Origin: an uncultured delta proteobacterium
GTDB taxonomy: Bacteria > Desulfobacterota > Binatia > UBA9968
Reading direction: 5' to 3'
DNA: 64,000 nucleotides
Assembly (NCBI GenBank): GCA_963840855.1
Contig: CAWJBB010000074.1
Span: forward strand, 9,214 to 73,213
In this document: positions 11,695 to 64,000 of the stretch, piece by piece
Layout of the letters: every line of letters starts with the position of its first letter
Position numbering within the stretch: position 1 is the first letter of the stretch
The notes under the pieces: generated by a model
Seen by the model: the letters and a program-made list of their open reading frames with translations, nothing else
What the model was told of the DNA's origin: nothing
Database searches by the model: none
Program-made: the position numbers and the translations under genes

Positions 11695-14600
11695 ATGAAT
11701 CAGATTGAACGCGACGCTTTTACAACTATTGAAGGAGAGAATTCTCATTCTCGATGGCGCGATGGGGACGATGATCCAGACCCACAAGCTTGGCGAAAAG
11801 GAATTTCGCGGCGCGCGATTCGCGAATCATGCCAAAGATCTGAAGGGCTGCAACGATTTGTTGTGCATCACGCAGCCGGACTTGATTACGGACATTCACG
11901 TTCAGTATCTCGAAGCCGGCGCCGATATTGTAGAGACCAACACCTTCAACTCGACATCGATCTCGATGGCCGATTACCACTTGGAGTCGCACGCCTACGA
12001 GTTGAATCTTGCCGGCGCGCGGGCAGCGAAGAGAGCAGTGGAACTGGTGACGACAAAAGACCCCTTGCGGCGGTGTTTTGTCGCCGGCGCCATCGGTCCT
12101 ACCAATCGCACCTGCTCGATCTCCACCGACGTATCCAGCGCGGCGACCCGTGGCGTGACCTACGACGAACTGGTCGACGCCTATTACGAGCAGGCGCGCG
12201 GTTTGATCGACGGCGGCGCCGATCTTTTGCTCGTCGAAACCATCTTCGACACGCTCAACTCGAAAGCGGCGTTCTTTGCGATCTTGAAACTGTTCGACGA
12301 ACGCCAAATCAATTTGCCGCTGATGGCATCGGTCACATTCATTCAACCGGGCAGCAACCGCGGCGTGACTGGCCAGACCGTCGAAGCGTTTTGGAATTCG
12401 ATTTCCCATGTACCGCTGTTGAGCGTCGGCATGAACTGCGCTTTGGGCCCCAAGGAAATGCGCCCGCTGATTGAAGAATTGGCACGGATCGCGCCGATCT
12501 ACGTCAGCACCCATCCCAACGCCGGACTGCCCGATCCGCTTCTGCCGACCGGATTCCCGGAAACTCCCGAGTCTTTGGCGCCGCAGTTGCGCGACTGGGT
12601 GGACAACGGCTGGCTCAACATCGTCGGCGGCTGCTGTGGCACGACGCCGGCGCATATCGCGGCGCTCGCGGCCGCCGTCAGAGGAGAGCCTCCGCGCGCT
12701 GTTCCCGAAGTCGACTCCTACTTGCGCTTGAGCGGTCTTGAAAGCGTGACCGTCCGGCCTGAGTCCAATTTTGTCAACATCGGCGAACGAACCAATGTGA
12801 CGGGCTCGCCGGTGTTCGCGAAGCTGATTCTCGCCGACGACTACGAAAAAGCCGTGAGCGTGGCGCGCCAGCAAGTCGAAGGCGGTGCGCAGATCATCGA
12901 CGTGAATATGGACGAGGGCATGCTCGATTCCAAAGCAGCGATGGAAAAATTCCTGCGGCTCATCGCCGGCGAATCCGAAATTGCGCGAGTGCCGGTGATG
13001 GTCGATAGCTCCAAGTGGGAAGTGATCGAAGCGGGGCTCAAGTGCCTGCAAGGCAAAGGCATCGTCAACTCGATCAGCCTCAAGGAAGGGGAGGATAAAT
13101 TCATCGCGCAAGCCCGGCTGGTTCGCCGCTATGGCGCGGCGGTGATCGTGATGGCTTTCGACGAACGGGGCCAGGCCGACACGTTCGAGCGAAAGATCGA
13201 AGTCTGCGCGCGAGCGTACAAGATTTTGACGGAGCAAATAGGCTTTCCGCCGCAGGAAATTATTTTTGATCCGAACATTCTCACCGTCGGCACGGGCATT
13301 GAAGAGCACAACAACTACGCCGTCAATTTCATCGAAGCGACGCGTTGGATCAAGCAGAACCTGCCGCGAGCAAAAGTCAGCGGCGGCGTGAGCAACATTT
13401 CTTTTTCGTTTCGCGGCAACAATCCTGTGCGCGAAGCGATGCATTCGGCCTTTTTATATCACGCTATCAAGGCCGGCATGGATATGGGCATCGTCAATCC
13501 CGGCATGCTCGCGGTATATGAAGAGATTCCCAAAGATTTGCTCGAACTCGTGGAAGACGTGCTGCTCAATCGTCGGCCCGATGCGACGGAGCGGCTGGTT
13601 GGCTTTGCGGAGACGGTCAAGAAGACCGACAAAACCGTCATCAAGGACGATAACTGGCGTGATGGCACGGTTGAAGAGCGTTTGTCCCACGCGCTCGTCA
13701 AGGGCATCACGGATTTCATCGATCGAGACGTCGAAGAGGCACGGAAACAAATACGGCAAACCGTTGGCGGTCATCGAAGGGCCGCTGATGGACGGCATGA
13801 ACGTCGTCGGCGATCTCTTCGGCTCGGGCAAGATGTTTTTGCCTCAAGTGGTCAAAAGCGCGCGCGTCATGAAAAAAGCCGTGGCCTATTTGACGCCATT
13901 TCTCGAGGCGGAGAAAAAAGCGACGCAGAACGTCGACCGGCGCACCAAGTTAGTGTTCGCCACGGTCAAAGGCGACGTGCACGATATAGGTAAAAACATC
14001 GTCGGCGTGGTCTTGAGCTGCAACAATTACGACGTGATCGATCTCGGCGTCATGGTGCCGGCGGACAAAATCATCGACACGGCGATTGAAGAGAAAGCCG
14101 ACATCATCGGTTTGAGCGGGCTTATTACGCCGTCACTGGACGAGATGGCCCATGTCGCCACCGAGATGACCCGGCGCGGTTTGAATGTCCCGCTGCTCAT
14201 CGGTGGCGCAACGACGAGCAAGCGCCACACGGCGGTCAAGATCGCGCCGGCGTATAAGCATGAAACGATTCACGTGATCGACGCTTCCCGCGCCGTGCCG
14301 GTGGTCGGCGCATTGATGAGGCCCGACACACGCAAGGCGCTGGATACGCAAAATCGTAAAGATCAGGAGGAGGCCCGCGAACAGTTCGAAAACCGCGTCG
14401 GTACACAATTGCTGACCTACGAAGAGGCATTGCGCCACAAACTGCACACGGAATGGGACGATCAGCATATCGCCGTGCCGGAATTTACGGGGCGGAAAGT
14501 CTTGAAAGATTTTCCTCTCGACGCGCTGGTGCCGTTTATCGACTGGTCACCGTTTTTTCACACCTGGGAAATTCGCGGCCGTTATCCGGATTTGCTAAGC

Positions 14601-15392
14601 GATCCGACCCGGGGCCCGGCAGCTCGCGAGTTGTTCGCCAACGCGCAGGAGCTACTCAATGAAATCGTCGAAAAGAGATTATTCACGGCCCACGGCGTCT
14701 ACGGCTTTTTCCCGGCGAACAGCGACGGCGACGATATTATCGTTTATGCCGATGCGACGCGCGCGAACGAGCAGGCGCGCTTGCACACGCTGCGCCAGCA
14801 GAAGGACAACCAGCGCGGCAAGCCGCAATTGGCGCTTGCCGACTTTATTGCGCCGCGCGAGAGCAGGCGGGTCGATTACATCGGCGCATTTGCCGTTACG
14901 ACAGGCCATGCTTGCCAGGATCTGGCGGAGCGCTTCGAAAAAGACCACGACCAATACAATTCCATCATGGCCAAGGCGCTGGCGGACCGGCTCGCCGAAG
15001 CTTTTGCGGAGTGTCTGCACAAGCGCGCGCGCGCCGAGTGGGGCTACGGCAAAGAAGAGAAATTCAGCATAGAAGATCTGATCGCCGAGAAATATCGCGG
15101 CATTCGCCCGGCACCGGGTTATCCTGCCCAGCCCGACCACACGGAAAAGCCGATCATCTTCGACTTGCTGAACGTCGGCGAAGCCGCCGGCATAACGCTC
15201 ACGGAAAGTTTCGCCATGTATCCGGCGGCGTCAGTGTGCGGGCTCTACTTCGCGCATTCTGAAGCACATTACTTTGCGGTGAATTCCATCGGCAAGGACC
15301 AGGCGGAGTCCTACGCCGCCCGCAAGGGCATGACCGTGGCGGAAGTGGAACGCTGGCTGTCGCCGATCCTCGGCTACGATCCAGCTAAGTAG
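11695..15392 (+). CDS. metH: Cobalamin-dependent methionine synthase (apparent frameshifts near 11712 and 13750)
   Basis: [24 protein letters not shown], then in a second frame [18 protein letters not shown] and [15 protein letters not shown]. The two ORFs join to a full-length MetH. Confidence 0.95.
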
Positions 15393-22528: not shown

Positions 22529-23571
22529 ATGGCCACTGCTCAAGGACTCACATACGCCAAAGCCGGCGTCAGTATTGACGCCGGCGATGAGCTGGTGCGC
22601 CGTATCCGTCCCATCGCCCGCAAAACCATTGTTCCCGGCGTTTTGGCGGGCGTGGGTGGGTTCGGCGCCCTGTTTGAACTCGAAGGCCGCGGCTACAGCG
22701 AGCCCGTTCTGGTGTCGTCCACCGATGGTGTCGGCACCAAGCTCAAAATCGCTTTCATGACCGGAATCCATGACACGGTGGGCATCGATCTGGTCGCCAT
22801 GAGCGTTAACGACATTCTCACCCAGGGCGCCGAGCCGCTCTTCTTCCTCGACTATTTCGTGTGCGGCAAGCTAAATGTGAAAATCGCCGAGGCGGTAGTG
22901 CACGGCATCGCCGACGGGTGCCGCCAGGCCGGTTGTGTCTTGATTGGCGGCGAGACCGCCGAGCATCCGGGAGACTACCCCAGGGGTGAATATGATCTCG
23001 CCGGCTTTGCCGTCGGCGTCGTGGAAAAAAAAAGATGATTGACCCGCGGGCTATCGTTGCCGGCGATATACTGATCGGCCTGCCGTCGAGCGGCCTTCAT
23101 AGCAACGGTTATTCACTGGCGCGCAAGGTGTTACTCGATATCGGCGGCATGAAATTAGGCAGGCGCGTGCACGAGCTGGGCCGAAGCTTGGGCGAGGAAT
23201 TGCTGGAGCCGACGCGCATCTACGCCAACACCATGCGCAAGCTGCTGCGCCGTTTTCCGGTCAAAGGCGCGGCGCATATCACCGGCGGCGGCATTACAGG
23301 CAATCTGCCGCGGGTACTGCCGCGCGGCGCCCGGGCGCACATCGAACGCCGTAGCTGGCCGGTGCCGCCCATCTTCGATTTGATTCAAAAGACCGGGAGT
23401 GTTTCCCAGGCTGAGATGGACCGCACGTTTAACAATGGCCTCGGCATGATTCTTGTGGTCGCGCAGCGAGAGGCCGATAACATACTCGGAGCGCTCAAAA
23501 AAATGGGCGAGCGATGTTTCGTGATCGGTGCGATCCACAGAGGTGTAAAAGGCGCGAGCATTAGCGTATAG
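22529..23571 (+). CDS. purM: Phosphoribosylformylglycinamidine cyclo-ligase (frameshift in A9 run at 23025-23033)
   Basis: [22 protein letters not shown], then [23 protein letters not shown]. Confidence 0.95.
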
Positions 23572-33900: not shown

Positions 33901-34099
33901 AAACTCCTTTCTGGTCGCGAGCTTCAATATCAGAGGCCGTATCGACGACCCGACGATCACGCCGGCGCCGTTGGGCACGCTTTCGGAAATGTTTTGGGGA
34001 GTGCTGGGAATTCCCAAGAGCTTGATTCCCTTCGCCGGCGACGCGAATGATGCCCAAAAGGAAGTGCCGCAAGACCAACTGCCCGCGCCAAGTCGATGA
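30974..34099 (+). CDS. AsmA-like/YhdP-type envelope-spanning protein
   Basis: N-terminal TM anchor, long beta-rich body, C-terminal AsmA_2-like GVYSTDNL..GAGKID..IRGRIDDPTI. Confidence 0.82.
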   Translation: MRMLLKLTAFLTAAVLLFFVVVSLAFFHLVRTGEFRRYLITEIEQQTELKLQLGEADLEIGRILGISFHNVAVAESDLAAPALSAELVTARVALWPLLDRRLVFYEVRLKKPDARLARDSEGKIPLLERLLNLPFLKQGNAQFTFDLRTVNIADGEIEFTDHYSETAPATTRLHQVALVLERVQGQALREFLANWLVLKPKQPQGAALKFAIAAGVERDGQQAKLHAQGKLVFPDDRLDLTRAWHDVDARIDKMPAAMAQVYGGKLLTVKSLRGTLDSRLHFEGNLHQRARVSGKVGFERLSVDAPELFATPLDAGDGQLQIEIDWRPGQWEVSRMDYRSKDLALGVKGQARRVADGDTHLRLDLGAKPLSVALLKKYFPARWLASSKIEQVVSAATEGELQIHKAGVNAKVAEIRRVLESGFGEGLWFDVEVRNVSGNFPGGYPPLRAVNGRIALENGRFAFSNLRGVSGRIHLTDVDGSLDYSPASPGVLQLRARGEADLGELREQAQRGLMPAEFANLVLPVQALGGMGKFDITLTRPADSKPRAEGKVALESARLQWDKYVLTDINGDFAFTPTEIKTDKVRALISGAPVEARLALKNYAADDGVFDLAVDSPGVKAGIVSRLLLETGSIQDPGIVRGSVRYQGSFNDKQDRKFTGNLELFNVQLATHPLLQPLRQLNGKISIDESGIEFQDMKGLLVGFAASASGRWRYAQRPQLIFDFTAPNLDITYLISQIDPEPGDFYANLQAEGRLALGQGRINNFEFTDSKSNLILDRRIWRFSNLTLRAGGGTGSGPLTVVHKLDTLEIIAEPRAKNVPIAVFLRWFDLSNAEISGTVDLTGKFDTAGKGNAERKRNLNGAFNLKIADGTIYRMRILVQLLNVLDLSRWFTFQLPDLRKQGIRFRAITGDFKVASGVYSTDNLLVDSDDLRMTGAGKIDASRDEIDFIVAVRPFAGIDAAITHIPLLGRGIAAIKNSFLVASFNIRGRIDDPTITPAPLGTLSEMFWGVLGIPKSLIPFAGDANDAQKEVPQDQLPAPSR

Positions 34100-34383
34100 A
34101 GCCGCAACTGTTGCTCTATTCGCGAAAGGATTGCTGTCTCTGCGACGAGATGAAGAAAGTCATTCGCCGGGTCGCGGATAACATGCCGCTGGCGCTCGAA
34201 GAGATCGACGTTGACAGCGCTCCTGAATCGCGCGACCAATACGGTGACGAAATTCCAGTGCTGTTTATAAACGGCAGAAAAGCGTTTAAGTACCAGGTCA
34301 CGGCGCGGCAGCTGGAAGCAAGAATTGGCGGAAAAGTCCCTTTCATGAAGACTTTCACGAAGAGGATATTTAACCGCTCGTGA
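34096..34383 (+). CDS. Glutaredoxin-like protein (DUF836)
   Basis: LYSRKDCCLCDEM..IDVD..YGDEIPVLFING. Confidence 0.88.
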   Translation: MKPQLLLYSRKDCCLCDEMKKVIRRVADNMPLALEEIDVDSAPESRDQYGDEIPVLFINGRKAFKYQVTARQLEARIGGKVPFMKTFTKRIFNRS

Positions 34384-52395: not shown

Positions 52396-52629
52396 TGGAG
52401 GTCTCGCATAAACGAAGATTTCCGCTGGGATCGCATCAAACAATCCTTACGGCTTTGCGATGAAGCATCTGCCCGGATTATGCCGGTGTTGATTGTGTCA
52501 ATCAATAGAATTGTCGATGCGGGCGACGCGAGCAGGGCCGGAAGTTGATTTGACTTGTGACCTCTTTACCGCTGCCCGATGAACATGTTACTTTTCGAGG
52601 ACATAAAAAATCATGCGAGGGTAAAGCGA

Positions 52630-53382
52630 ATGCGAATCATTGAAAAATTATTTACCACAAAGGAGAACGGCGTCGCGGGTTTCTTGTCGTACCCCGAACG
52701 CGCCGAGCCGGGGCCGGCCCTATTTCTTATCCATCCCAAGGGCGGCCTTGGCGAATATATCAAGACCGAGACGCGAAAGTTCGCGAAGCTCGGCTACAGC
52801 ACCTTTGCGATCAACGTCTTCGAGCAACTCGGCTATCCGGAGCCAACCCATATCGTCACCGGATCGCAGATCCAGGCCAAGACACCGGACCCGGAATTCA
52901 CCCGCGTCCTCACCGAGGGGTGGCGTTTTTTGCTCAAGCAGCCGCATGTGAACAAAAGCCGAGTGGCTGTTTGCGGCTACTGCATGGGCGGGCGCATCGC
53001 CATTCATTTCGTCGCCGCCACGCCCGAGGTCCGCGCTTTTGTGGGTTACTATCCGACGGTACGCGACGAACCCGAGACGCCCCTGAGACCCGTGCATCCG
53101 TCGGTCGCAGCAAGGAAGATTCGCTGCCCTTCGATTAATCTATACGGCGCCGACGATGTCACCACCGTGCTGCCGGTGCAGGAACGGATGTGGCAAGCCT
53201 TCAAAGAGAACGGCCAGCCGCTGGAATGGCACTTCTTTCCGTTCGGCGGCCATGGTTACGTCGACCCCGGAGCGCCTGGATACAACGCTCATGTGGCTGA
53301 CTTGTCGTGGCCGCTGGTGGAGGACTTCATGGAGCGCCATCTCAAGTGGAGTTCGCCGGAAGTGCAAAATCCCAACGTTTAA
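52630..53382 (+). CDS. Dienelactone hydrolase family protein
   Basis: GYCMGG nucleophile, YGADD, GHGY. Confidence 0.9.
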   Translation: MRIIEKLFTTKENGVAGFLSYPERAEPGPALFLIHPKGGLGEYIKTETRKFAKLGYSTFAINVFEQLGYPEPTHIVTGSQIQAKTPDPEFTRVLTEGWRFLLKQPHVNKSRVAVCGYCMGGRIAIHFVAATPEVRAFVGYYPTVRDEPETPLRPVHPSVAARKIRCPSINLYGADDVTTVLPVQERMWQAFKENGQPLEWHFFPFGGHGYVDPGAPGYNAHVADLSWPLVEDFMERHLKWSSPEVQNPNV

Positions 53383-53463
53383 AACGAAGGTACGAGCTAG
53401 TCCGGATCATTCGTGAGATCAGTAAACAGGGTTCAAAACGACTGGAACGATTTGAACGACTCG

Positions 53464-53721
53464 TTATTCGCGGCCGCGAATCGTGCTTTTGAACCCTTCC
53501 AGCGTCATCTTGCCGCTCACCAGCCGTTCCATATCCGAAGCGCTCACCGGGTGACGCAGATCGCCCAGCCTTAAGTCCCAGTGAAATATCTCTCCCGGCC
53601 CCGGCAAGACATCCGGCAAACGCTGGTCGGCGTGTGAAATGGAAATATCTTTACCACGGTAAACGCCGCGTACGTCGGCGCGGTTAGCGCGGCACCAGAC
53701 AAGCACTTCTTCGAACGTCAT
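53464..53721 (-). CDS. Hypothetical protein
   Basis: 85-aa ORF starting 1 nt after the cupin stop (TAATATG coupling). Confidence 0.6.
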   Translation of the reverse strand: MTFEEVLVWCRANRADVRGVYRGKDISISHADQRLPDVLPGPGEIFHWDLRLGDLRHPVSASDMERLVSGKMTLEGFKSTIRGRE

Positions 53722-53722
53722 A

Positions 53723-54154
53723 TTAGCTCTGCGAATCTTCGACGGGATTGAGCAGGTGCTCTTTCAGGCCTGTATGATAGCCGTAGATGACCTTGCCGAT
53801 CTTCGGTCTTGGTTTGGGCTCGGTGCTTACCTGATAGAGGATGAGTCGCTCGGTGCCGGTGTTATTGAGCTGGTAAAAAAAACCGGCCGGCACATGCACC
53901 GCCTGGTGCTGCGTCAGATGATATTCTTCTCCATCCTTCAGGCCCTTCATCGTGCATTCGCCTTGCACCACGAGGAAAGTGTGGTCCGAACCAGGGTGGC
54001 AGTGCAACTCGTCGTTTACGCCTGGCTCGTAGCAATTGAGCGCGATGTGCGCGCGCTCGGTCTGCGTGGGGCGAACATAATTCCGGCCCGTCGGCCTGCC
54101 CCAGACGGCTTGCTTTTCCGTATCGACGATCGTGATCTTGGTAATTGCCTCCAT
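53723..54154 (-). CDS. Cupin domain protein
   Basis: LHCHPGSDHTFLVVQG..VHVPAGFFY; AGGAGGA RBS. Confidence 0.82.
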   Translation of the reverse strand: MEAITKITIVDTEKQAVWGRPTGRNYVRPTQTERAHIALNCYEPGVNDELHCHPGSDHTFLVVQGECTMKGLKDGEEYHLTQHQAVHVPAGFFYQLNNTGTERLILYQVSTEPKPRPKIGKVIYGYHTGLKEHLLNPVEDSQS

Positions 54155-54485
54155 TGTGCTCCTCCTGTTAGCTGCGGTTTTGCGCGTTATTCATATTATT
54201 GGGCGAATTTACAGGAGAAACCTACACCCGCGCAAGGGCTGGAATCGGCCCCAACTTCCCTTCCAGCGATTCCAGGCGCCTGACTTCAGCGGAGAAGGGG
54301 GGATTCAACGCTGATAGGGAGCCTTTAGGCGGCCATAAATGCCCCGCTATTTAAGCCCACGGAGCCAGGGCCGCTTGTAATAAACATTAGCGATTTCAAT
54401 AGCTTACCTATAGCTCCCAATCCCTCTCTTGGACCGCTATTGATAGGATGGTATGAGTAATCTCGTGATCTCCAAGGAGGTTAGC

Positions 54486-54551
54486 ATGTCCGCCAAAATC
54501 GAATTCCTAACCACGCCGAAGCGGCCGAAAAAGCGCCGCCAGTCAAAATAG
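54486..54551 (+). CDS. Putative 21-aa basic small protein MSAKIEFLTTPKRPKKRRQSK
   Basis: Perfect AAGGAGG 5 nt before the ATG, AT-rich promoter-like region upstream and terminator downstream. Confidence 0.5.
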   Translation: MSAKIEFLTTPKRPKKRRQSK

Positions 54552-54621
54552 CGATCGCGCGCATCATTCTGCGCCGTCATTTGACGGTATCCGCTGGCGT
54601 TTTGTGCCGGCGCTAAATTTC

Positions 54622-54656
54622 AAAAGGCCCGGGTCGAGTCGACCCAGGCCTTTTTT
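54622..54656. terminator. Bidirectional intrinsic terminator
   Basis: AAAAGGCCCGGGTCGA-G-TCGACCCAGGCCTTTTTT. Confidence 0.8.
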
Positions 54657-54693
54657 GTTTCTGGCAATGGGTGGGGATATCCTTGGTCGTCAC

Positions 54694-55761
54694 TCAAAAT
54701 CCGTAAAGCCGCTTCGGATTATCACCTAAAATCTTTTGCCCCAAGGTCGGGCTGATTCTGCCGCCACGGGCGAGTGTTTGGATGGCCTCAATATCGTTGG
54801 AGTAATCGGCGTGGCCGTAGTCGGTGCCGACCATGAGATTATCTTCCCCGGCGTACTCCACGACGTAGGAGAAATCATCCGTGGTCTGGCAGGCGACGTA
54901 GACGCGGTTGTCGCGCAGCAGGCTGGCGGCAACGAGATTGCGCTCTTTTGGGCGAACCTGGGACAGCACATGGCCGGCGTACTTACGCTGAAACTCCCGT
55001 TCGGCCTGCGTCCGAATGACCAGATCGTTGACCGCATAGGGAATCCACTGGGAGGTTGTCTCGACAAAAGACCAGCGCAGCTTTGGAAACTTGTCCGGCA
55101 CACCCTGATAGATCAAGTTATTGAAGGCGCCCACCGACGGCAGCTTGAAGCGTGAAAAGACATCCAATCCAAAGTGATCGTAGTAGCCAAAATTTCCCGT
55201 GCCGGCATGAACGCAAATGGGTAGATCAAGCCTTTGAGCCTCTTCGTAGAGCGGAAAAAGGGAGCTGTCCGAAAGCAGCCGCTCGCCCTCGAACCCACGC
55301 ATGAAAACACCGCATGCGCCGTTGGCTTTGCCGAAATTGATTTCCTCGATGGCGCGGTCCATGCGCCTAAGCGGCGGCAGCACCACCCAGCGAAGCCGGC
55401 CTTCCCCCAATCTCCAGATATGAGCCAGCCAGCGGTTGTATCCTCGACAAAGCGCCAGGTCCACTTCCGCCCGGGCCGTTAACGGCCGCAAGAAGAGCGA
55501 TGGGTAGAGAACCTGAATATCGATGCCCAGTGAATCCATATGAGCGAGCCGCGCGGCAACGTCCGTCAAGTCGCGGGACTCCGCGGGAACATTGAGGCCA
55601 AGATTGGAGTTTGGAAACACCCGGTCGTCGATGCGCCAAAACTCGATGCTGTTTTTCGTCGAAACTAAAAGCTCGGGCGCAAAGCGGCGGTCTTCCTCTA
55701 ACATGAAACTCCAGGTTTGCTCCGTTTCAATCACATGCGCGTCGGCATCGATGACACTCAT
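54694..55761 (-). CDS. Amidohydrolase_2 family protein
   Basis: IDADAHVIE, IQVLYPS, PICVH, GTDYGHAD. Confidence 0.9.
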   Translation of the reverse strand: MSVIDADAHVIETEQTWSFMLEEDRRFAPELLVSTKNSIEFWRIDDRVFPNSNLGLNVPAESRDLTDVAARLAHMDSLGIDIQVLYPSLFLRPLTARAEVDLALCRGYNRWLAHIWRLGEGRLRWVVLPPLRRMDRAIEEINFGKANGACGVFMRGFEGERLLSDSSLFPLYEEAQRLDLPICVHAGTGNFGYYDHFGLDVFSRFKLPSVGAFNNLIYQGVPDKFPKLRWSFVETTSQWIPYAVNDLVIRTQAEREFQRKYAGHVLSQVRPKERNLVAASLLRDNRVYVACQTTDDFSYVVEYAGEDNLMVGTDYGHADYSNDIEAIQTLARGGRISPTLGQKILGDNPKRLYGF

Positions 55762-55801
55762 CCTGGCTTCTCCTTTTAGACCAACCGAGCCGATGGCAGT
55801 T

Positions 55802-56230
55802 TCAACTACTGATGTAGCGTACTAACTGTTCGATAATAAATTGCTGATCGGCGATGATCGATTTCACGAGATCGCCGATGGAGATCAAGCCGACTAGCTT
55901 GCCTTCTTCCATGACGGGAAGATGGCGCACGCGCTTTTCAGTGACCAGCGCCATGCATTCTTCGATGGATTGCTCCGAGTGAGTATAAACCACGGGGCTG
56001 GTCATTATTTCTTTGACCGCCGTGGTGGGAGAGGCGCGGCCGAGTAGAATTACTTTACGCGCGTAGTCGCGCTCGGAGATGATGCCGACAACTCTACCGC
56101 CGTCCATGACCACGAGCGCGCCAATTTCTTTTTGAGCCATGAGTCCCAGCGCGTCGAATACCGTGGCTCCCGGGTCGACGCACCAAACTTCATGCCCTTT
56201 CACTGCTAGGATGTCTCGAACCTTCTTCAT
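55802..56230 (-). CDS. CBS domain pair protein
   Basis: GIISERDYARKV, RVRHLPV, ISIGDLVK. Confidence 0.93.
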   Translation of the reverse strand: MKKVRDILAVKGHEVWCVDPGATVFDALGLMAQKEIGALVVMDGGRVVGIISERDYARKVILLGRASPTTAVKEIMTSPVVYTHSEQSIEECMALVTEKRVRHLPVMEEGKLVGLISIGDLVKSIIADQQFIIEQLVRYISS

Positions 56231-56313
56231 GGGAGACCTCCTTTCAGAACTAACGCGGCTCGAAGGGCCCTATACGACTGAACGCGAAGATCGTTCCTGA
56301 TCGAGGGTAGAGA

Positions 56314-57291
56314 TCATTTTAGCAACTGGCGCGCCGCCGCAACGATGCGCTCGGCCGTGGGAGTCACATAGTCCTCTAGCGACACGGCAAAGGGCACGGG
56401 CACATGTGGGATCGTCACGCGCTTGATCGGCGCGCGCAGGCTCGCGAACCCTTCGTCTGCCATAATGGCGGCGAGCCCCGAAGCGACGCTGCAGTTGTCA
56501 TGGCTTTCATCCGTGACCACTAGCCGGCCGGTCTTTTTGACGGAGGCGAGCAAAGTCGCTTTATCGAGCGGTTCCAATGTCCGAGGGTCCACGACTTCGG
56601 CCGAGATTGCTTCTTTCGCCAGCGCTTCAGCGGCGGCCAGCGCTCGCGGCACTTGCACGCCGGTGGCGATTATAGTCAAGTCGCGGCCTTCGCGTCTTAC
56701 GGCCGCTTGACCGAAAGGAATGTCGTACTCGCCGTCCGGCACCGCGCCGCGCTCGTCCATGAGCCGCTCATGGGCGAAAAAGATCGTTGGGTCCTGGCTT
56801 TTCAAGAGCGCCGTGCGCAGCAGTCCTTTGGCATCCGCCGGACTGGCGGGCATCGCCACCTGCAAGCCCGGCGTGTTCCAATACCAGGGCTGCGGGCTTC
56901 CCGAGTGTTGCACACCACCGCCGCCGCGAATGCCGTAGCGCATGAAATAGGTCACGGGCACGTTGGTTTGCCCGCCGGAGTTCGAGTAGGCGATGGCCGC
57001 CTCGTTGATGATCTGCGGAATCGCTTCGTAGGAGAAAGTCGCGGTGCCGATATCGACCAGGGGTCTCAAACCGGCCATCGCCGCTCCCGCCGCTATGCCG
57101 CAAAAACCAAGCTCGGCAATGGGCGGGGATTTGATGCGGTTCGAAAATTTCTGCCGCAGGCGGGCGAATTCCGCTTGCCCCGGTCCGCTACCGACCAGGC
57201 CGCCGCCGATCAATACCACGCGCCGGTCTTGCGCGAAGATTTCGCCCAGCGCGCTGACGAGGGCCTCACCAATGGTCATTTCCCGCGGCAT
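56314..57291 (-). CDS. ThDP-dependent dehydrogenase E1 beta subunit (AcoB/PdhB-like)
   Basis: PPIAELGF.G.A.GAA..GLRP, QHS, VVDPRTLEPLD, SVKKTGR. Confidence 0.9.
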   Translation of the reverse strand: MPREMTIGEALVSALGEIFAQDRRVVLIGGGLVGSGPGQAEFARLRQKFSNRIKSPPIAELGFCGIAAGAAMAGLRPLVDIGTATFSYEAIPQIINEAAIAYSNSGGQTNVPVTYFMRYGIRGGGGVQHSGSPQPWYWNTPGLQVAMPASPADAKGLLRTALLKSQDPTIFFAHERLMDERGAVPDGEYDIPFGQAAVRREGRDLTIIATGVQVPRALAAAEALAKEAISAEVVDPRTLEPLDKATLLASVKKTGRLVVTDESHDNCSVASGLAAIMADEGFASLRAPIKRVTIPHVPVPFAVSLEDYVTPTAERIVAAARQLLK

Positions 57292-57294
57292 GGC

Positions 57295-58318
57295 TCAATT
57301 ACCCCTTCCCGCATAGGCGAAGTTGAGCGCGGCTTTCGGGTCGGGCAGCGGGACTTTCCACGGCAAACCGCGCTGCTTCGTCCGCATCCTTGCGAACCTC
57401 CGCGTCGAGCCGTTCAATTTCATCCCGGCTAAACCCTCCGCTGTTGACCAGCTCACGCGCATAGATGAGCACGGGGTCACCTTCCGCGTACCAGGAGCGC
57501 ACGCCGTCAGGCACCGCGCTGGCATCCCACGCCCATCCAATATTGGTCGTGCCCGCAACGAGCTTTGGGTGGGCGCCATCGTTGCCCGGCCATGGGTGGG
57601 TGCGGACCTCGACGAAAAACGGCCCCTCGCCGGCGCGGGTCCGCCGTACCAGCTCCGCTGTTGTCTTATGAACAAGACCGATATCGGCGCCGTCAACGAC
57701 CGTAGTTTCGACGTCGAGGGCGCGGGGAACGTTGGCGAGCTCTTTGGCGCTATGGCTTGAGCCGCTGCGGCCGGCGCGCCGGTAGTTGTTCTCCATCATG
57801 AAGATCAGCGGCAGCTGCCAAAGCTTCGCGATGTTCAATGACTCGTAGAACACTCCTTCTTCCATGGCGCCGTCGCCAAAGAAGACCAACGACACCGCCT
57901 TGGTTTCCTGTACCTGTGAAGCCAATGCCGTCCCGGCGGCAAGCGCGAGACAGCCCCCGACGATGGCCGAGGTGTGAACGATTTTGAGATCAGGCGCAGC
58001 CACGTGAAAGGTCCCGGCGCGCCCGCGGCAGTAGCCGGTTTCGCGTCCGATGATCTCGGCCAAGACCTTCTTCGGGTCGCCGCCTTTGGCGATCACATGG
58101 CCGTGATTTCGATGGGTGGTGAAAACATAGTCTTCCGGCGCCAAGGCCGCGCAGACCGCGACGCCGGTGCCCTCCTGCCCGATATAAACGTGGAAATGGC
58201 CGCGAATGAGCCCTTCATAGTCGTCATTGAACCGAATGACATGCTCTTCGGCGCGCCTGATCATCAGCATTTTGCGCAAGATGCCAAGCTGATCGTCTCG
58301 AGCCAGATCGGGTAGCAT
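57295..58318 (-). CDS. ThDP-dependent dehydrogenase E1 alpha subunit (AcoA/PdhA-like; apparent frameshift near 57350)
   Basis: HVYIGQEG, THRNHGH, GDGA..ENN ThDP motif; C-terminus PLPDP in the adjacent frame. Confidence 0.88.
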
Positions 58319-58410
58319 TGTTTTCCTCCAAACGTTTCTGTTATGTGGCCTTAAAAAAGGGCACGCTCGCCGGCTAGCGACGAGTCATGCCCTGTGTTTT
58401 TCAACGGCTG

Positions 58411-59248
58411 CTAGAAAAACGCCAAGGTGCGCATCTCGATGCTTTCGCGCGGCGGAGCGCCCGGCGGGCTGGTGGGATCGTCGAAAGCGCAGTGCGCGGT
58501 CCAGCGCGCGCGACCGTCTTTTTCCGAATCGAAGGTTTTGAACACCATCGCTTCGTGGCGCTGCATGTTGGGAAAGTAGTACCAGACATGATCGGGGTTG
58601 AAGGTCATGTGATAGGTTTCGCCGACCCGATTCGGGTAAATCCGCGCGCTGGGAACCAGTTCCGCCGTGCCGATGCTGCGCGCGTCGGCGATCGCCAGCG
58701 GCTCTCGTTGTACCGGATGTCGAATCGGCCGCCAGGTCTGGACGACGGCAAAGCGGCCCTTGAGCAGTTCTTCCGCTTCGTCGGGAAGCAGATCGCGCAC
58801 GCGCTGCGGCCCCGACCACTCGGTGTAGTCGTTATGGGCGTTGCGCACCGGGCCGCTGATCTGTTTTTCGTCCCGAGTCGCCTGGTCGGCGGAGCGCAAC
58901 GTATGGTCGAAGACGACCACGCGCTTGGCACCGGCAGAGCGTTTCACCAGCTCTTCGGTCTCTTTATAGTAAACCGAGCGGACCTCGGTCTTCGTCGTAG
59001 AAGTTTTTCATCTTGGTCTCATGATTGACGAAGATGAATCCTTCGCGCTCCAGGGAGAATTGATCGGCGATGGCGCGGCCGTTATGGATCGTCATTTTGT
59101 GTTCTTGGTAATTGCCCTTGCGTTTCTGGTCCGCCGCCGACTGTCTCAGGCCTCCGTAGGTGGCAGGTTTTTCGCCGCTATCGACGAGGTAGTTGAGCAG
59201 CGCTTCGATGGATTCTAACGGTTGTCCAATTCTTTCCGGTCGTGCCAT
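58411..59248 (-). CDS. CmcJ/NvfI (AsaB-like) oxidoreductase family (apparent frameshift near 58985)
   Basis: FSLEREGF; VVFDHTLR, AHNDYT, WRPI..PLAIADARS, HCAF, RESIEMR. Confidence 0.85.
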
Positions 59249-59299
59249 TCGTCTTATCCCTCTGAGTTTGGGTGAACGGCAATTTGTTCAGTATCCTAT

Positions 59300-59941
59300 T
59301 TAACCCCTCGGCAGCATCTCGCATACGGTTTGCCGCGGGCCCAGGCTTTCATAATAACGGTTTTCTTCCGGAACGTAGCGGCCCTGATTGAAGTCGCCGC
59401 CTCTTTGGCTGCGAATGATCACCGCGACGGTGCGCTCGCCGACGGTGAGCTCCGTGTGAATCTCATAGGGCTTCACGAGATCGATTTCCCCAGGGCCGAC
59501 GAGCACGTCGCATGACTCGCGAATTTCGGCGTAATCGGGCCGGGAACGGTCGTCGAGGCGGTCATAACGCACGACCCGTTCATGGCCGTCGAGCACGCCA
59601 TAAAGTGTGTAGATATGCGCATGATCGTGGATGCGCGCGCGCTGGCCCTGGCGCGCCTCGCCTTTGGTCAATCCGTTGATGGCGAAGCCATAGTCGGGAT
59701 CTTCGTAGAACAGCAAGTTTTCCGCCCGCCCGTTGGCGGGCACGCAGTCCGGCCAGTGTTTCGCCGCGGTAATTACTTCGGGGTCGGCCAAAAGCTCGGC
59801 GAGAACCGGGCGCAGGGAATTCCAGCGCTTGTCGAGGTCCGGTTCTTGAGCGAAGAGCGCCCGGGTTTTGCGCACGAAGCGCTCCATGGCGTTTTCACTT
59901 TGTGTTTCTCTCTGGGATTGAGTCGCTGTCTGAGGTTCCAT
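59300..59941 (-). CDS. Cysteine-dioxygenase-like 3-His cupin
   Basis: LLFYEDPDYGF, IHDH..YTLYGVLDG.E, EIHTE; GGAGG RBS. Confidence 0.78.
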   Translation of the reverse strand: MEPQTATQSQRETQSENAMERFVRKTRALFAQEPDLDKRWNSLRPVLAELLADPEVITAAKHWPDCVPANGRAENLLFYEDPDYGFAINGLTKGEARQGQRARIHDHAHIYTLYGVLDGHERVVRYDRLDDRSRPDYAEIRESCDVLVGPGEIDLVKPYEIHTELTVGERTVAVIIRSQRGGDFNQGRYVPEENRYYESLGPRQTVCEMLPRG

Positions 59942-59958
59942 TTTATTCCTCCGTATTA

Positions 59959-61128
59959 CTAGGGTTGGACAGTTTGACTGTGCTCTCCGGCTGGCATGAA
60001 TTCGGCCGCTTCGGCCCGCGCGTAGAAGCGCGCGCAGTTATCCCAAAGAATCTTCCGCTTGTCGTCGTCGGACAACTTGAGCTCGAGAAAGCTTTCGACG
60101 GCGTGGGGATATTTGGAATCGCCGTGGGGATAATCGGTGGAGAAGACGAGCTGGTCGCAACCGACTTCTTCGATGGTATAGCGCGCCGGTGCTTCATCCG
60201 GTTCGACGGAAATCCAGCACTGCCGCTTGAAATAGTCGCTGGGTTTCATGGCCAGCTCCGGCATGAAGATATCGCCTTCGCGCTCGTATCCTTCGTCAAG
60301 GCGCCACAATAGCCAGGGCAGCCACGAGCAGTTGGCTTCGAGAAAGGCTACTTTCATCTTCGGGTGACGTTCGAGAATGCCGCCGCCCAAGAAAGCGCCC
60401 ATGCCCATCATCTGTTCGAAGGGTTGAGCGTAAACGCGCCTGAGACCGAAGTTGGGCTCAAAGTGTTCCGCTGCCTGGCGCGATCGGGAGGCGGAGGCTT
60501 CGTGAAAACCCAGAGGGAGGTTTAAATCTTCGAGGGTGTTCCATAGCGGTTCGTAGTAAGGATCGTACCAGTTCTTGCCGTTAACCAAATTCGCGCGCAG
60601 AAAGACGGAGCGAAATCCGTAATCTTCCACGACCCGGCGGGTTTCTTCGACGGCGTCGTTAATATCGTAAATCGATATCATGCCCGCGCCGAGGAGCCGG
60701 CGCGGATTGGCGGAACAGAAATCATGCAGCCAGTCGTTGTAGGCGCGCGCCAGAGCCGCAGCGAAGCGCGGATCGTGATCGGGATAGGTCAGCACGCCCA
60801 AGCCGCGGGTTGGAAACAGCACGGCGACATCGATACCTTCGACATCCATCGCTTCGAGCTGAACCTCGCCGGTCCAACCGCGCTCCGAGTGATCGCGATA
60901 GATGCCCTGGTTCTTTTCGTAGTTGTGACCCTTGTGGGGGGTGCCCCGGGTGCGTAGAGTGGCCTGGGGCGCGTTCGGAAAGATCAGGCCGAGGTCGCGG
61001 ACGTTCTCGGATGTTCTGCCGCGCGGCGCGTTGGGGCGGAACTCCGGCGCGATGTAACGCTCCCAGAGATCGGGCGGCTCCATGATATGCATATCGCTGT
61101 CGAATACCTTGAAGCCATTTTTCGCCAT
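59959..61128 (-). CDS. Amidohydrolase_2 family protein
   Basis: DSDMHIMEP, AVLFPT, PLGFH, FLEANCSW, STDYPHGD. Confidence 0.92.
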   Translation of the reverse strand: MAKNGFKVFDSDMHIMEPPDLWERYIAPEFRPNAPRGRTSENVRDLGLIFPNAPQATLRTRGTPHKGHNYEKNQGIYRDHSERGWTGEVQLEAMDVEGIDVAVLFPTRGLGVLTYPDHDPRFAAALARAYNDWLHDFCSANPRRLLGAGMISIYDINDAVEETRRVVEDYGFRSVFLRANLVNGKNWYDPYYEPLWNTLEDLNLPLGFHEASASRSRQAAEHFEPNFGLRRVYAQPFEQMMGMGAFLGGGILERHPKMKVAFLEANCSWLPWLLWRLDEGYEREGDIFMPELAMKPSDYFKRQCWISVEPDEAPARYTIEEVGCDQLVFSTDYPHGDSKYPHAVESFLELKLSDDDKRKILWDNCARFYARAEAAEFMPAGEHSQTVQP

Positions 61129-61188
61129 GAGCTATTCCTTTCGATGGGTTTAAGAGCGCCGAGAAAACCGAATTATCCGCACAATCTC

Positions 61189-61266
61189 AGCCTAATGCTG
61201 GTAGTTGCCGCTTGTCAAGTTGCAACTACGGCATGATTGACAAGCTCGTTTCAGCGGCACTAGAGT
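61189..61266. promoter_or_regulatory. Back-to-back sigma70-like promoters with overlapping palindrome
   Basis: Plus: TTGACA(61237)-N18-TAGAGT. Minus: TTGACA(61218)-N18-TAGGCT. GTAGTTGC-N13-GCAACTAC at 61201-61229. Confidence 0.65.
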
Positions 61267-61303
61267 GGCGGCGAGGGGAATAATTTTTCAGAGCTTAAAC
61301 GCC

Positions 61304-62579
61304 ATGCAATTGAACCTCGCCATCCATCCCATCACTGAAATTCGCTTCGCCGAGCACGCGCCGGCTCGCCGGCGCTGTGCTCACCGTGAACCGGGAAGAA
61401 TTACTCCGGTTGGTGCTCGAGGATGCATCCTTCGAGAACGTCGATTTCGCCATCGCCCGCCCCGGCGAAAGTCTGCGCGCCGGGCCGGTCTTTGATATCG
61501 TGGAGCCGCGCGCAAAGGCGCCGGGATCGAGTCCTGATTGGCCCGGTATCTTGAACGCGCCGCAGACCGCCGGCGCCGGCACGACGCATGTTCTCGAAGG
61601 CGCGGCGGTAACGATGCTGCGGGAAGAGTCGCCCGGCGAATCGCGCGGCGCCACTGGTTATGTATTGGAAATGAGCGGGGAGCCGGCGACCCGCTCGCCC
61701 TATAGCTCCTTGCATCATTTGATTGTCATTCCCCGCGCGAAGGCCGGACTGCCCGGTCACGCCCGGCAAAAAGCCTATCGTTTGGCGCAACTAAAGATTG
61801 CCGTGCATTTGGCGCGGGCCGGCTTGAATCAAGCGCCGGCGCAAACGCAAGAACTCGCGATCTCAGCATCCGAAGACGGCGCCGTGCTGCCGCGAGTCGC
61901 CTATATCGGCCAGGTTTTTTCGCGCCAGCGCAAGCCGGAGCAGGGCGAACAGATTCTCTACGGGGCCAACACCGACGGCATGCTGCCGGTGGCGCTCCAT
62001 CCCAACGAATGGCTGGACGGCGCGCTGGTGACTTCCTATCACTGTTCCATCGGCGGCGCGGAAACGTATTTTTACCAGAACCATCCTGTCATAACTGAAC
62101 TTTACCGGCGCCACCAGGCGCGCGAATTGAACTTCGCCGGCACCGTGGCGACCATCGCATCGGCTGATAACTTCGATCGCGAGCGCAACTGCCGCTTTGC
62201 CGCGAATTTGGTCAAGTGGGCACTCAACGCCGACGCCGCGGTACTGACCAAGTTCGGCGGCGGCGTGCCGCACACCGATCTTTCTGAAACGGCCCGGCTG
62301 TTGGAGCGGATGGGAATCAAAACCGTCGTGCAAGTCACCGACCTCGCCCGCGACCGGCGCGTGGAATCGGCGTTGCTCTTCAATTTTCCCGAGGTCGACG
62401 CCATTGTCTGCATCGGCGGCAATGGCACGAAATGGCAGCTGCCGCGCGTCGAGCGAGTGATCGCGGCCAACGGCGGCATGGCGGAATTGCTCGCCGGTCC
62501 GTTTGAAATCGATGCGCTCAATGTCTCCGGTGTGGCCAATCAGCAAGGCGCCTCGAAACTAAGATCGATGATTTACTGA
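61304..62579 (+). CDS. Glycine/sarcosine/betaine reductase component B proprotein, GrdE-like (apparent frameshift near 61360)
   Basis: MQLNLAIHPITEIRF then IARPGES..FDIVEPRAK, G.THVLEG, LHPNEWLDGA, YQNHPVI, GGGVPHTD. Confidence 0.8.
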
Positions 62580-62588
62580 AATAGCCGA

Positions 62589-62662
62589 GAGGCGGAAGGC
62601 GCGAGGCGAGAGCCGGAAATTTTTCCGCATCTCTCGCGCCTGTTGCCTCAAGCCTCACGCCC
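62589..62662. repeat. 7-mer (AGGCGNG) array with inverted (GCCTCA) array
   Basis: gaggcggaaggcgcgaggcgagag ... ctctcgcgcctgttgcctcaagcctcacgcc. Confidence 0.65.
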
Positions 62663-62674
62663 AAGGAGTTTAAG

Positions 62675-63961
62675 ATGAGAATCGTTCATTACTTGAATCA
62701 ATTTTTCGGCGGGCTGGGCGGAGAAGAACGGGCGGGCGTGGGATTGGAAGCCCGCGACGGTGCCGTCGGACCCGGCAAACTCTTGGAGCAGCTTCTTGGC
62801 GGCGAAGCGAAGGTCGTGCTGACTCTCGTCTGCGGCGATAACTATGCCGTTGAAAATCAGCAGGCGATGCTCGCCGCTGCCGTCGAGAGAATCCGGGATG
62901 CCAAGCCGGATCTGTTTGTCGCCGGTCCCTGTTTCCAAGCGGGCCGCTACGGCATGGCCGCCGGCGCGCTCTCTGTCGCCGTGCAATCCCAACTGAATAT
63001 TCCCGTTGTCACCGGCATGGCCGAAGAAAATCCCGGCGCGGATCTCTATCGCGAGTTTTTGTATATCGTCGATTCCGGCGACAACGCCGCCAAGATGCGC
63101 GACATTCTGGCGACGATGGCGCGGCTGGCGGTGAAGTTGGTGAACCAGGACTCCATCGGATTGCCCCGCGAAGAGGGCTATCTACCGCGCGGGCTGATCC
63201 GCGACCGGTTCGTTGAGCGGACCGCCAGCGAACGGCTTGTAGACATGCTTTTAGCGAAGGTAAAAGGCGAGCCCTTCGAGTCCGAAATGGTACCGACGAC
63301 CTTCGCGCCTATACCGATGCCGCCTTCGATCAAAGATCTCAGCAGGGCCAAGGTGATGCTGATCACCGACGGCGGGCTGGTGCCGAAGGGCAATCCCGAC
63401 AAGATCCAAGGCTCGGCGGCCACCCGTTGGGGCTCCTACAGCATCGGTGGTTGCGACGATCTCAAGGGAGAAAATTACGAGATCTCGCATGGCGGTTATG
63501 ACGCGCAGTTCGTGCGCCAGGACCCCGACCGCCTTGTGCCTCTCGATGTCATGCGCGAGTTGGAGAGAGAAGGGGTCATCGGCAAACTCCACGATTCGTT
63601 CATCTCGACTTCGGGATTGGCCAACCCGCTTTCCAACACGCGGCGCATGGGACGAGAAATGGCCGAGCGGGCGAAAGCGCTCGGCATCGACGCAATTATT
63701 TTAACTTCCACTTGAGGCACCAGCACTCGCAGCGGCGCTGCGATTACCACCGAGTTGGAAAAAGCCGGCATCCCGACGGTACAGATCACCGCGGCGCTGC
63801 CGGTGGCGAAAATGGTCGGCGCAAACCGCACCGTGCTCGGCAACGGCATCGTCCACGTCGTCGGCGACGCCAGCATTTCGCCGGAGCAGGAAAAACAACT
63901 GCGGCGCAGGTTGATCGAGAAGGCTTTAGAGCAATTGCGCTCCGACGACAAGCAGGCGTAG
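62675..63961 (+). CDS. grdB: Glycine/betaine/sarcosine reductase selenoprotein B-like (428 aa, Sec at TGA 63713-63715)
   Basis: HYLNQFFGG, CGDNY, AGPCFQAGRYG, GGLVPKGNPD, HGGYD, LTST-TGA-GTSTRSG..EKAGIP; the frame continues through the TGA to TAG at 63961. Confidence 0.9.
63716..63743 (+). promoter_or_regulatory. Bacterial SECIS-like hairpin
   Basis: 11 nt after the UGA: stem TCGCAGC / loop GGC / GCTGCGA (63727-63743). Confidence 0.7.
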
Positions 63962-64000
63962 GGCGTTCCGTCTACGTCCACTTTAACAGGCCTCGAATTG

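Follow-up and report, generated by a model that had tools for sequence, protein, structure and literature searches.

Near the end of a 64,000-nucleotide stretch of DNA from an uncultured delta proteobacterium of the class Binatia (hereafter the window; positions 9214-73213 of contig C74) lie the genes for a GrdE-like subunit of a protein-B-type reductase (61304..62579, plus strand) and for a GrdB-like selenoprotein (62675..63961, plus strand). Back-to-back with this pair runs a series of minus-strand genes which, reading away from grdE, encode an Amidohydro_2 protein (AH_B; 59959..61128), a thiol-dioxygenase-like cupin of 213 amino acids (cup213; 59300..59941), a CmcJ/NvfI-family protein resembling Fe/2-oxoglutarate oxygenases (58411..59248), the alpha and beta subunits of a thiamine diphosphate (ThDP)-dependent E1 enzyme (57299..58318 and 56314..57291, respectively), a CBS-pair protein of 142 amino acids (55802..56230) and a second Amidohydro_2 protein (AH_A; 54694..55761). 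From these genes, the first-pass annotation of the sequence had drawn a single new catabolic system in which a repurposed selenoenzyme and an orphan ThDP enzyme cooperate. Comparison with relatives leads us to read the region, with a probability of about 0.6, as a mosaic of three separable units (the grdEB pair; AH_B, cup213 and the CmcJ-like gene; E1 alpha, E1 beta, the CBS protein and AH_A) rather than as one pathway. The genes themselves had been correctly named: all were found in place with the identities proposed for them, the minus-strand genes are tightly packed as described (gaps of 17, 51, 92, 7, 83 and 40 nt from AH_B through AH_A), and none of the window open reading frames (ORFs) scanned encodes an E2, E3, GrdA, GrdC, GrdD or thioredoxin. 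Apart from a glutaredoxin-like (DUF836) ORF at 34096-34383, located directly after a gene for a 1041-amino-acid AsmA/YhdP-like protein, no thiol-redox gene was noticed in the window.

The window belongs to a 7.1-Mb assembly of 93 contigs (G000), estimated to be 94% complete with 8% contamination. Synteny was analyzed over 80 loci around GrdB relatives, onto which the window proteins were mapped, all ORFs being clustered and a GrdB tree built. The phyletic patterns of GrdB, GrdA and cup213 were compared in 26 genomes (20 GrdB-bearing and 6 GrdB-lacking), and order-wide searches covered 101 genomes, the tallies for GrdA, E1 alpha and cup213 including the unpublished genomes G244, G267 and G249. 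Candidatus Binatia and 'delta proteobacterium' metagenome-assembled genome (MAG) are among the record titles of related loci. The record titles of L011, L009 and L035, which share 77-80% GrdB identity with the window and an identical gene order, name Verrucomicrobiia, Udaeobacter and Chloroflexota; these three may be mis-binned contigs or the result of recent transfer. Contigs from four sequencing runs, one of them a metatranscriptome (X15), matched parts of the window at 92-99% and are silent on expression and operon structure.

The GrdE/GrdB-like pair

When the TGA at positions 63713-63715 is read as selenocysteine (Sec; U347), the grdB-like gene encodes a protein of 428 amino acids with a full-length match to the GrdB family (PF07355, 445.3 bits over residues 1-346; TIGR01918, 480.5 bits against a cut-off of 65.45). 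The in-frame TGA was kept in 71/71 aligned GrdB-like genes. It is followed, 16-30 nt downstream, by a 6-bp hairpin (63728-63742) resembling a selenocysteine insertion sequence (SECIS), whose synonymous sites did not vary among 23 orthologues, in contrast to the third codon positions flanking it. Support for the hairpin comes from this conservation, since the single-sequence fold of the region was no better than that of shuffled sequences (z of only -0.11). SelA is encoded in the genome. No tRNA-Sec was found among the 39 tRNAs predicted by ARAGORN in the assembly; some standard tRNAs are missing too, so that this absence provides no evidence against Sec use. Judging by the codon retained throughout the alignment and the hairpin fixed at synonymous sites, the predicted use of Sec is real.

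In other respects the pair is atypical, as the first-pass annotation had held. The motif UxxCxxC, described in PMC6778437 as conserved in grdB, grdF and grdH and as protecting Sec from oxidation, is missing from the window GrdB, which reads U-G-T-S-T-R-S. This version was found in 61/75 sequences, and U-G-T-C-T-R-C in six only, the clostridial-type ones. The cut-offs of the substrate-specific equivalogs were not reached either, be it GrdB for glycine (438.6 against 602.2), GrdF for sarcosine (479.8 against 800) or GrdH for betaine (433 against 775). In the GrdB tree, the window protein falls within a clade of 23 rows with an SH-aLRT support of 92. The GrdE-like protein (PF09338, 245.9 bits) likewise scored far under the NCBIfam cut-offs, with 188 bits for GrdG and 143 bits for FarE, the second best model. 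The self-cleavage Cys of the clostridial S-G-N-C site was not recovered in this protein: the site aligns to S-Y-H, with Cys replaced by His. A Cys one column past the site in the window GrdE, common to only 5/63 sequences, is followed by a conserved Ser.

The GrdE-like match covers profile positions 25-395, the missing N-terminus lying upstream of a frameshift. Relative to L004, L011 and L065, the gene carries one additional C at about 61356-61376, because of which the true start (ATG 61304) is cut off from the remainder of the gene and the ORF as read spans 61377-62579. A further additional C, near 58987, splits the CmcJ-like gene when compared to L004, L062 and L065. Two independent +1 insertions, each relative to three relatives, in 2/11 genes common to L004 would be expected of a decaying locus, in which both genes were true pseudogenes and the cluster had no present function in this organism. 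We hold this to be improbable in light of the otherwise full length and good conservation of both genes, and of a run X2 contig from a closely related, near-identical population in which the extra base at 58987 is absent (the grdE frameshift site is outside the run contigs matched to the window). Moreover, the essential genes metH and purM are likewise split across frames in the same window, metH in two overlapping ORFs (11705-13993 and 13518-15392) and purM in an N-terminal and a C-terminal ORF (22529-23038 and 23035-23571). The four splits together suggest that single-base indel errors are frequent in this assembly. Given the splits of metH and purM and the run X2 contig, both the CmcJ-like and the grdE-like frameshifts are most likely assembly errors, as far as sequence comparison can tell.

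The 175-bp spacer between grdE and AH_B (61129..61303) holds two back-to-back TTGACA boxes. One belongs to a promoter-like site upstream of grdE (61237-61266; TTGACA-18 nt-TAGAGT, 10/12 positions; one site against 0.2 expected), and the other, on the opposite strand, faces AH_B. The 16 intergenic regions compared contain both boxes as well, spaced about 12 nt to 4 kb apart. An inverted repeat (G-C-T-T-G-T-C-A-A ... T-T-G-A-C-A-A-G-C) considered as a shared operator resolves into these two divergent -35 boxes, their spacing being highly variable. We see in the spacer two independent, predicted promoters placed back-to-back, and no shared operator. Across the window, no known RNA element was detected at Rfam gathering thresholds, and lowering the stringency to E ≤ 1 yielded two chance-level matches in 53300-64000; upstream of grdE, Rfam revealed neither a glycine riboswitch nor any other leader.

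Predicted partners of the pair in the genome and across the order

Five GrdE/GrdB pairs (on contigs C74, C30, C49, C46 and C61), one GrdA and one GrdC are encoded in the genome. GrdA (PF04723, 178 bits; one in-frame TGA) and GrdC (477 amino acids; NF040746, 562.1 bits against an equivalog cut-off of 450) are specified by a single grdC-grdA operon on contig C7 (L003, 8781-10681), with grdC directly upstream of grdA. Beside the operon lie a macro-domain gene and a gene for an NMT1-type binding protein; grdB, grdD and thioredoxin genes (trx) are absent from its vicinity. An E3-like gene near grdA was considered as a candidate GrdA reductase and rejected, since NCBIfam identifies its product as a soluble transhydrogenase (650 bits, cut-off 465). 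GrdD was not recovered: its best match in this genome scored 27.9 bits, and 0/101 genomes of the order yielded a match at E ≤ 1e-20; the same search was positive in 5/5 control genomes with clostridial-type grd loci. The scanned window ORFs, the surroundings of grdC-grdA and the flank following grdB in relatives, to which this search was confined, yielded neither thioredoxin nor thioredoxin reductase.

GrdA is present in 74/101 genomes of the order, to which full-length GrdB is almost confined within the class. Among the genomes compared for phyletic patterns, GrdA was found in 19/20 GrdB-bearing genomes and in 0/6 GrdB-lacking ones. Running counter to this association, G081 has GrdB yet is not among the GrdA matches. 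In G121, G047 and G105, grdA adjoins grdB. Since GrdA and GrdC are both encoded in the genome and GrdA tracks GrdB across relatives, the GrdB-like enzymes most probably work with GrdA and GrdC, as far as gene content indicates. The contig ends with the window, and sequence past grdB therefore cannot be read here; in the downstream flanks of relatives, no grdA, grdC, grdD or trx was found, so that a standard set of these genes directly downstream, which the first-pass annotation had named as refuting its proposal, is not seen there.

The loci of the four other pairs (L113 on C49, L115 on C61, L112 on C30 and L114 on C46) differ in their surroundings. One pair shares an operon with an Amidohydro_2 gene and lies next to citrate-synthase-, PrpD- and phosphoenolpyruvate (PEP)-mutase/isocitrate lyase (ICL)-family genes reminiscent of the methylcitrate cycle. 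Another adjoins genes for a creatinase/prolidase-family protein (Peptidase_M24), a class IV aminotransferase and a major facilitator superfamily (MFS) protein; of the two remaining pairs, one follows a family-5 solute-binding protein gene and one lies near a sigma-54 activator gene. Such distinct contexts fit the idea of several substrate-specific modules. A gene for a thioredoxin-like DUF255 protein (Thioredox_DsbH; roughly 500 amino acids; cluster c9) was seen in 16/80 GrdB loci (L025, L030, L032, L033, L036, L037, L040 and L058 among them), mostly beside paralogous GrdE/GrdB pairs and not beside the pair of the window type.

The minus-strand genes and their conservation among relatives

The three genes nearest to the spacer look like an O2-dependent module for the oxidation of a small molecule, possibly a thiol, to judge by their family matches and, for cup213, by a predicted fold. 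AH_B (PF04909, 98 bits) best matches PtmU3 in the PDB (6omp, E 3e-44), followed by aromatic-acid decarboxylases. AH_B may thus act either in the manner of PtmU3, a non-heme diiron monooxygenase, or by metal-dependent decarboxylation. The two CmcJ-like ORFs match NF041278 with 233.3 and 53.9 bits, and their intact L004 orthologue does so with 314.4 bits (cut-off 80); the PDB match is to NvfI (7de2, E 3.7e-32). No Pfam family, CDO_I included, was matched by cup213 at E values up to 10, nor was any NCBIfam model. A PDB sequence match was obtained with mercaptosuccinate dioxygenase (8vni, E 3.7e-7), and Foldseek searches with an AlphaFold model of cup213 (pLDDT 87.8) returned TM values of 0.68-0.77 for the top twelve matches (best E 6.9e-13), all listed matches down to rank 49 being thiol dioxygenases. 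H105, H107 and H162, which fall on cupin-motif positions, were invariant in 19 sequences. The family has more than 1500 database relatives. Of its three paralogues in this genome, one lies on C68 (L110, 7176-7745) beside S-adenosylmethionine synthetase and S-adenosylhomocysteine hydrolase genes, and another on C80 (L111, 7332-7916) beside genes for a Cys/Met pyridoxal phosphate enzyme and a PALP enzyme, a placement near sulfur amino-acid genes that hints at a role of the family in sulfur metabolism. Taken together, these features make the earlier label of a three-His cupin resembling cysteine dioxygenase a fair one. As for the amidohydrolases, tblastn with both window proteins (E ≤ 1e-8, at least half of the query) revealed about 126 Amidohydro_2-like places in the genome, a very large expansion because of which an amidohydrolase is to be expected beside any locus.

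The outer part of the minus-strand series is of another kind. E1 alpha (PF00676, 168.6 bits) and E1 beta (Transket_pyr and Transketolase_C) share their family domains with the E1 enzymes of 2-oxoacid and acetoin dehydrogenases, from which they differ in scoring under the equivalog cut-offs for pyruvate dehydrogenase (E1 beta, 267-269 bits against 321 and 454; E1 alpha, TIGR03182, 236 bits against 394) and in having no E2 or E3 alongside, whether in the scanned window ORFs or next to E1 orthologues in four annotated loci (L101-L104). With the CBS protein (PF00571, 96.8 bits in two stretches) and AH_A (PF04909, 66 bits), they make up a block that is foreign to nearly all related loci. E1 alpha at 60% identity or more was found in 1/80 GrdB loci, that of the closest relative (L004; GrdB identity 91%), where alone a close orthologue of AH_A (94%) and the CBS protein also occupy this position. 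In L062, which has the next closest block, about 750 bp separate the small cupin gene described below from the CmcJ gene. Orthologues of E1 alpha with 68-81% identity do occur in about 39/101 genomes of the order, where their surroundings differ: no grdEB, CmcJ or cup213 was found within 8-10 kb at any of eight such loci outside this genome, the E1 genes of G029, G065, G073, G137 and G169 lie at least 0.18 Mb from every grdB, and E1 orthologues are also present in the GrdA-less genomes G214 and G208. Because the block sits beside grdEB in a single related locus and its orthologues elsewhere keep other neighbors, it is best read from gene order as a recent, lineage-specific insertion into the tail of the oxygenase module. 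The gap on its far side (54155-54693) was dismissed as a feature, its minus strand holding no ORF of 60 amino acids or more and its conservation ending at the closest relative.

These comparisons bear directly on the cooperation that the first-pass annotation had proposed, with E1 alpha/beta and the Sec enzyme working together and the GrdB selenol serving as acceptor in place of lipoyl-E2 or GrdA. The co-directional E1 genes are closely spaced within the minus-strand cluster (gaps of 7-92 nt), and no E2 was seen in the window or next to the E1 orthologues of the four annotated loci, which speaks for this model. However, the neighborhood, whose conservation the annotation had itself offered as a check, is not conserved, the E1 orthologues occur apart from grdB and in genomes without GrdA, and a selenol standing in for lipoate or GrdA is unnecessary in a genome that encodes both a Sec-containing GrdA and GrdC on contig C7. 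We consider cooperation between the two enzymes to be barely credible, and a catabolic system built on a selenol in lieu of lipoate, having failed the comparison with relatives, is not worth pursuing as stated.

Whether the oxygenase genes are equally independent of the reductase is less clear-cut, and several observations weigh against their full separation. For 20 loci of the clade, 3.5 kb or more of upstream sequence is available; CmcJ is kept upstream of grdE in 19 of them, cup213 in 18 and AH_B in 17, and in 15/22 AH_B loci the gene is directly divergent from grdE at a distance of 112-498 bp. Farther out, the flank ends with a small Cupin_2 protein of 143 amino acids (53723..54154, minus strand; PF07883, 38.7 bits), the 85-residue orf85 (53464..53721, minus strand) and, as its outer member, a dienelactone-hydrolase family (DLH) gene (52579..53382, plus strand; PF01738, 97 bits). 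DLH orthologues occupy the equivalent relative position in 20 related loci, and orf85, found in 14, is always paired with the small cupin. In L013, L024 and L053, these three genes are kept beside grdE in a second, co-directional arrangement in which orf85, on the grdE strand, immediately precedes grdE. L062 and L028 have the block, or its DLH end, placed downstream of paralogous grdEB genes. The conserved neighborhood could thus stem from a true functional connection within this sub-lineage. As for orf85, it matched no Pfam or NCBIfam family, and a search of Atlas clusters, in which Binatota hypotheticals came nearest (best score 0.87, below 0.9), gave a lead only.

On such a reading, the oxygenase block of the sub-lineage (AH_B, cup213 and the CmcJ-like gene, perhaps with the small cupin, orf85 and DLH) and GrdEB would act on one compound. 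A purely conjectural example would be an organosulfur carboxylate, whose C-S bond next to the carboxylate would be reductively cleaved by GrdEB and whose freed thiol would be oxidized by the cupin. Besides the gene order, the thiol-dioxygenase fold of cup213, the sulfur amino-acid genes beside two of its three paralogues and a GrdE lineage lacking the Schiff-base site, as would suit a non-amine leaving group, are in keeping with this proposal. Yet the loci all belong to related genomes of a single clade, in which the flank downstream of grdB (genes for a HAMP protein, solute-binding proteins, a flavin reductase, a PEP-mutase/ICL-family protein, a VOC dioxygenase and a GAF histidine kinase) is just as syntenic, so that inherited gene order within the clade accounts for the neighborhood. 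The units are, moreover, physically separable: in 6/22 AH_B loci, inserts of 1.2-4.1 kb with ORFs for solute-binding proteins and a methyltransferase separate AH_B from grdE, and in one (L062, genome G280) there is no grdE on that side, the 91%-identical AH_B block adjoining other genes. Their phyletic patterns are unlinked as well. Orthologues of cup213 (70-89% identity) are present in 68/101 genomes of the order, in 12/20 GrdB-bearing genomes and in 4/6 of those lacking both GrdB and GrdA. On inspection of ten further loci, the AH_B and cup213 pair proved intact in the GrdA-less genomes G113, G214, G038, G193 and G212; AH_B, cup213 and CmcJ lie 1.8 Mb from grdB in G047; cup213 occurs alone in four genomes of the sister family; and a paralogous AH_B and cup213 pair is found on C41 of this very genome, with no grdEB there. 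We therefore look upon joint action on one compound as unlikely. As AH_B, cup213 and CmcJ are found in Grd-less genomes too, we consider them to be independent of the reductase: on this view, the oxygenase module is autonomous, has its own predicted promoter and stands back-to-back with grdE in one sub-lineage only. The mosaic of three units is thus our preferred reading of the region.

Comparison with known systems and possible role of the reductase

The GrdEB pair shares with the clostridial protein B components (GrdB/GrdE, GrdF/GrdG and GrdH/GrdI of Peptoclostridium and Clostridium, whose partners are GrdA, GrdC/GrdD and thioredoxin) its full-length family matches, the predicted Sec with its hairpin, and the company of a TGA-containing GrdA and of GrdC; one GrdA for several protein-B paralogues is also what clostridial systems that handle multiple substrates have. 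Compared to the canonical clostridial complex, the window lineage lacks UxxCxxC, the pyruvoyl-forming Cys and GrdD, and falls far short of the equivalog cut-offs. Its grdA and grdC genes are, furthermore, unlinked from the window pair, and the MAGs that carry it come from soil and bear the label Candidatus Binatia. Textbooks know Grd enzymes from anaerobic Stickland metabolism. Betaine reductase GrdI, too, has been described as devoid of the Cys that forms pyruvoyl, and fluoroacetate reductase FarE is the second-best NCBIfam match of the window GrdE; both cut-offs are nonetheless far from reached, and no betaine, choline or halide context was seen here. Turnover of fluoroacetate by a Grd-like system is reported in PMC10838667.

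Among the oxygenase genes, cup213 resembles the mercaptosuccinate, 3-mercaptopropionate and cysteine dioxygenases and ADO in its fold, its three invariant His and its weak match to 8vni, and differs from them in sharing only 12-20% identity and in matching no Pfam family. Of the Amidohydro_2 decarboxylases and hydratases (LigW, ACMSD, gamma-resorcylate decarboxylase), AH_B matches the decarboxylases at E values of 1e-12 to 1e-26, far behind its match to PtmU3.

By analogy with the glycine, sarcosine and betaine reductases, a route may be sketched for the reductase. The grdE-like and Sec-grdB-like genes would encode one protein B module out of five, each specific for a substrate, in a Grd-type system that departs from the canonical one. 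Here, the GrdB selenol would attack the carbon next to the carboxylate of the substrate and displace a leaving group. The resulting carboxymethyl-type unit would then pass to the single Sec-containing GrdA, from which GrdC would take it over as a thioester. The lack of UxxCxxC, of a conserved pyruvoyl Cys and of GrdD suggests that the substrate, like betaine or fluoroacetate, would have no need of a Schiff base, and that the end product would be other than acetyl phosphate.

In the literature on Grd systems in Binatia or Binatota, on GrdB and GrdE with an amidohydrolase, on the UxxCxxC motif and on Grd in SAR202, Nitrospinota and Dehalococcoidia, we found no description of this Grd lineage or neighborhood, and the consulted portion of a 2026 review of the selenoproteome treats the canonical complex alone. 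A far-reaching proposal, which we regard as decidedly unlikely in its entirety, would see in grdEB an undescribed branch of soil selenium-dependent reductases, with up to six modules per genome served by one GrdA and one GrdC, which would break bonds different from the C-N bond of glycine, hand the acyl group to a non-phosphate acceptor and, at this locus, have been recruited to the side of a thiol-dioxygenase module for the breakdown of an organosulfur carboxylate. Independently of that proposal, the reductase pair is a well-documented example of a Grd lineage poor in Cys and lacking GrdD, in which a single soil genome encodes five pairs of the protein-B type together with one GrdA and one GrdC. 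A branch of Grd enzymes that is widespread in soil, has changed active-site motifs and does without the subunit forming acetyl phosphate would broaden the chemistry known for selenoenzymes.

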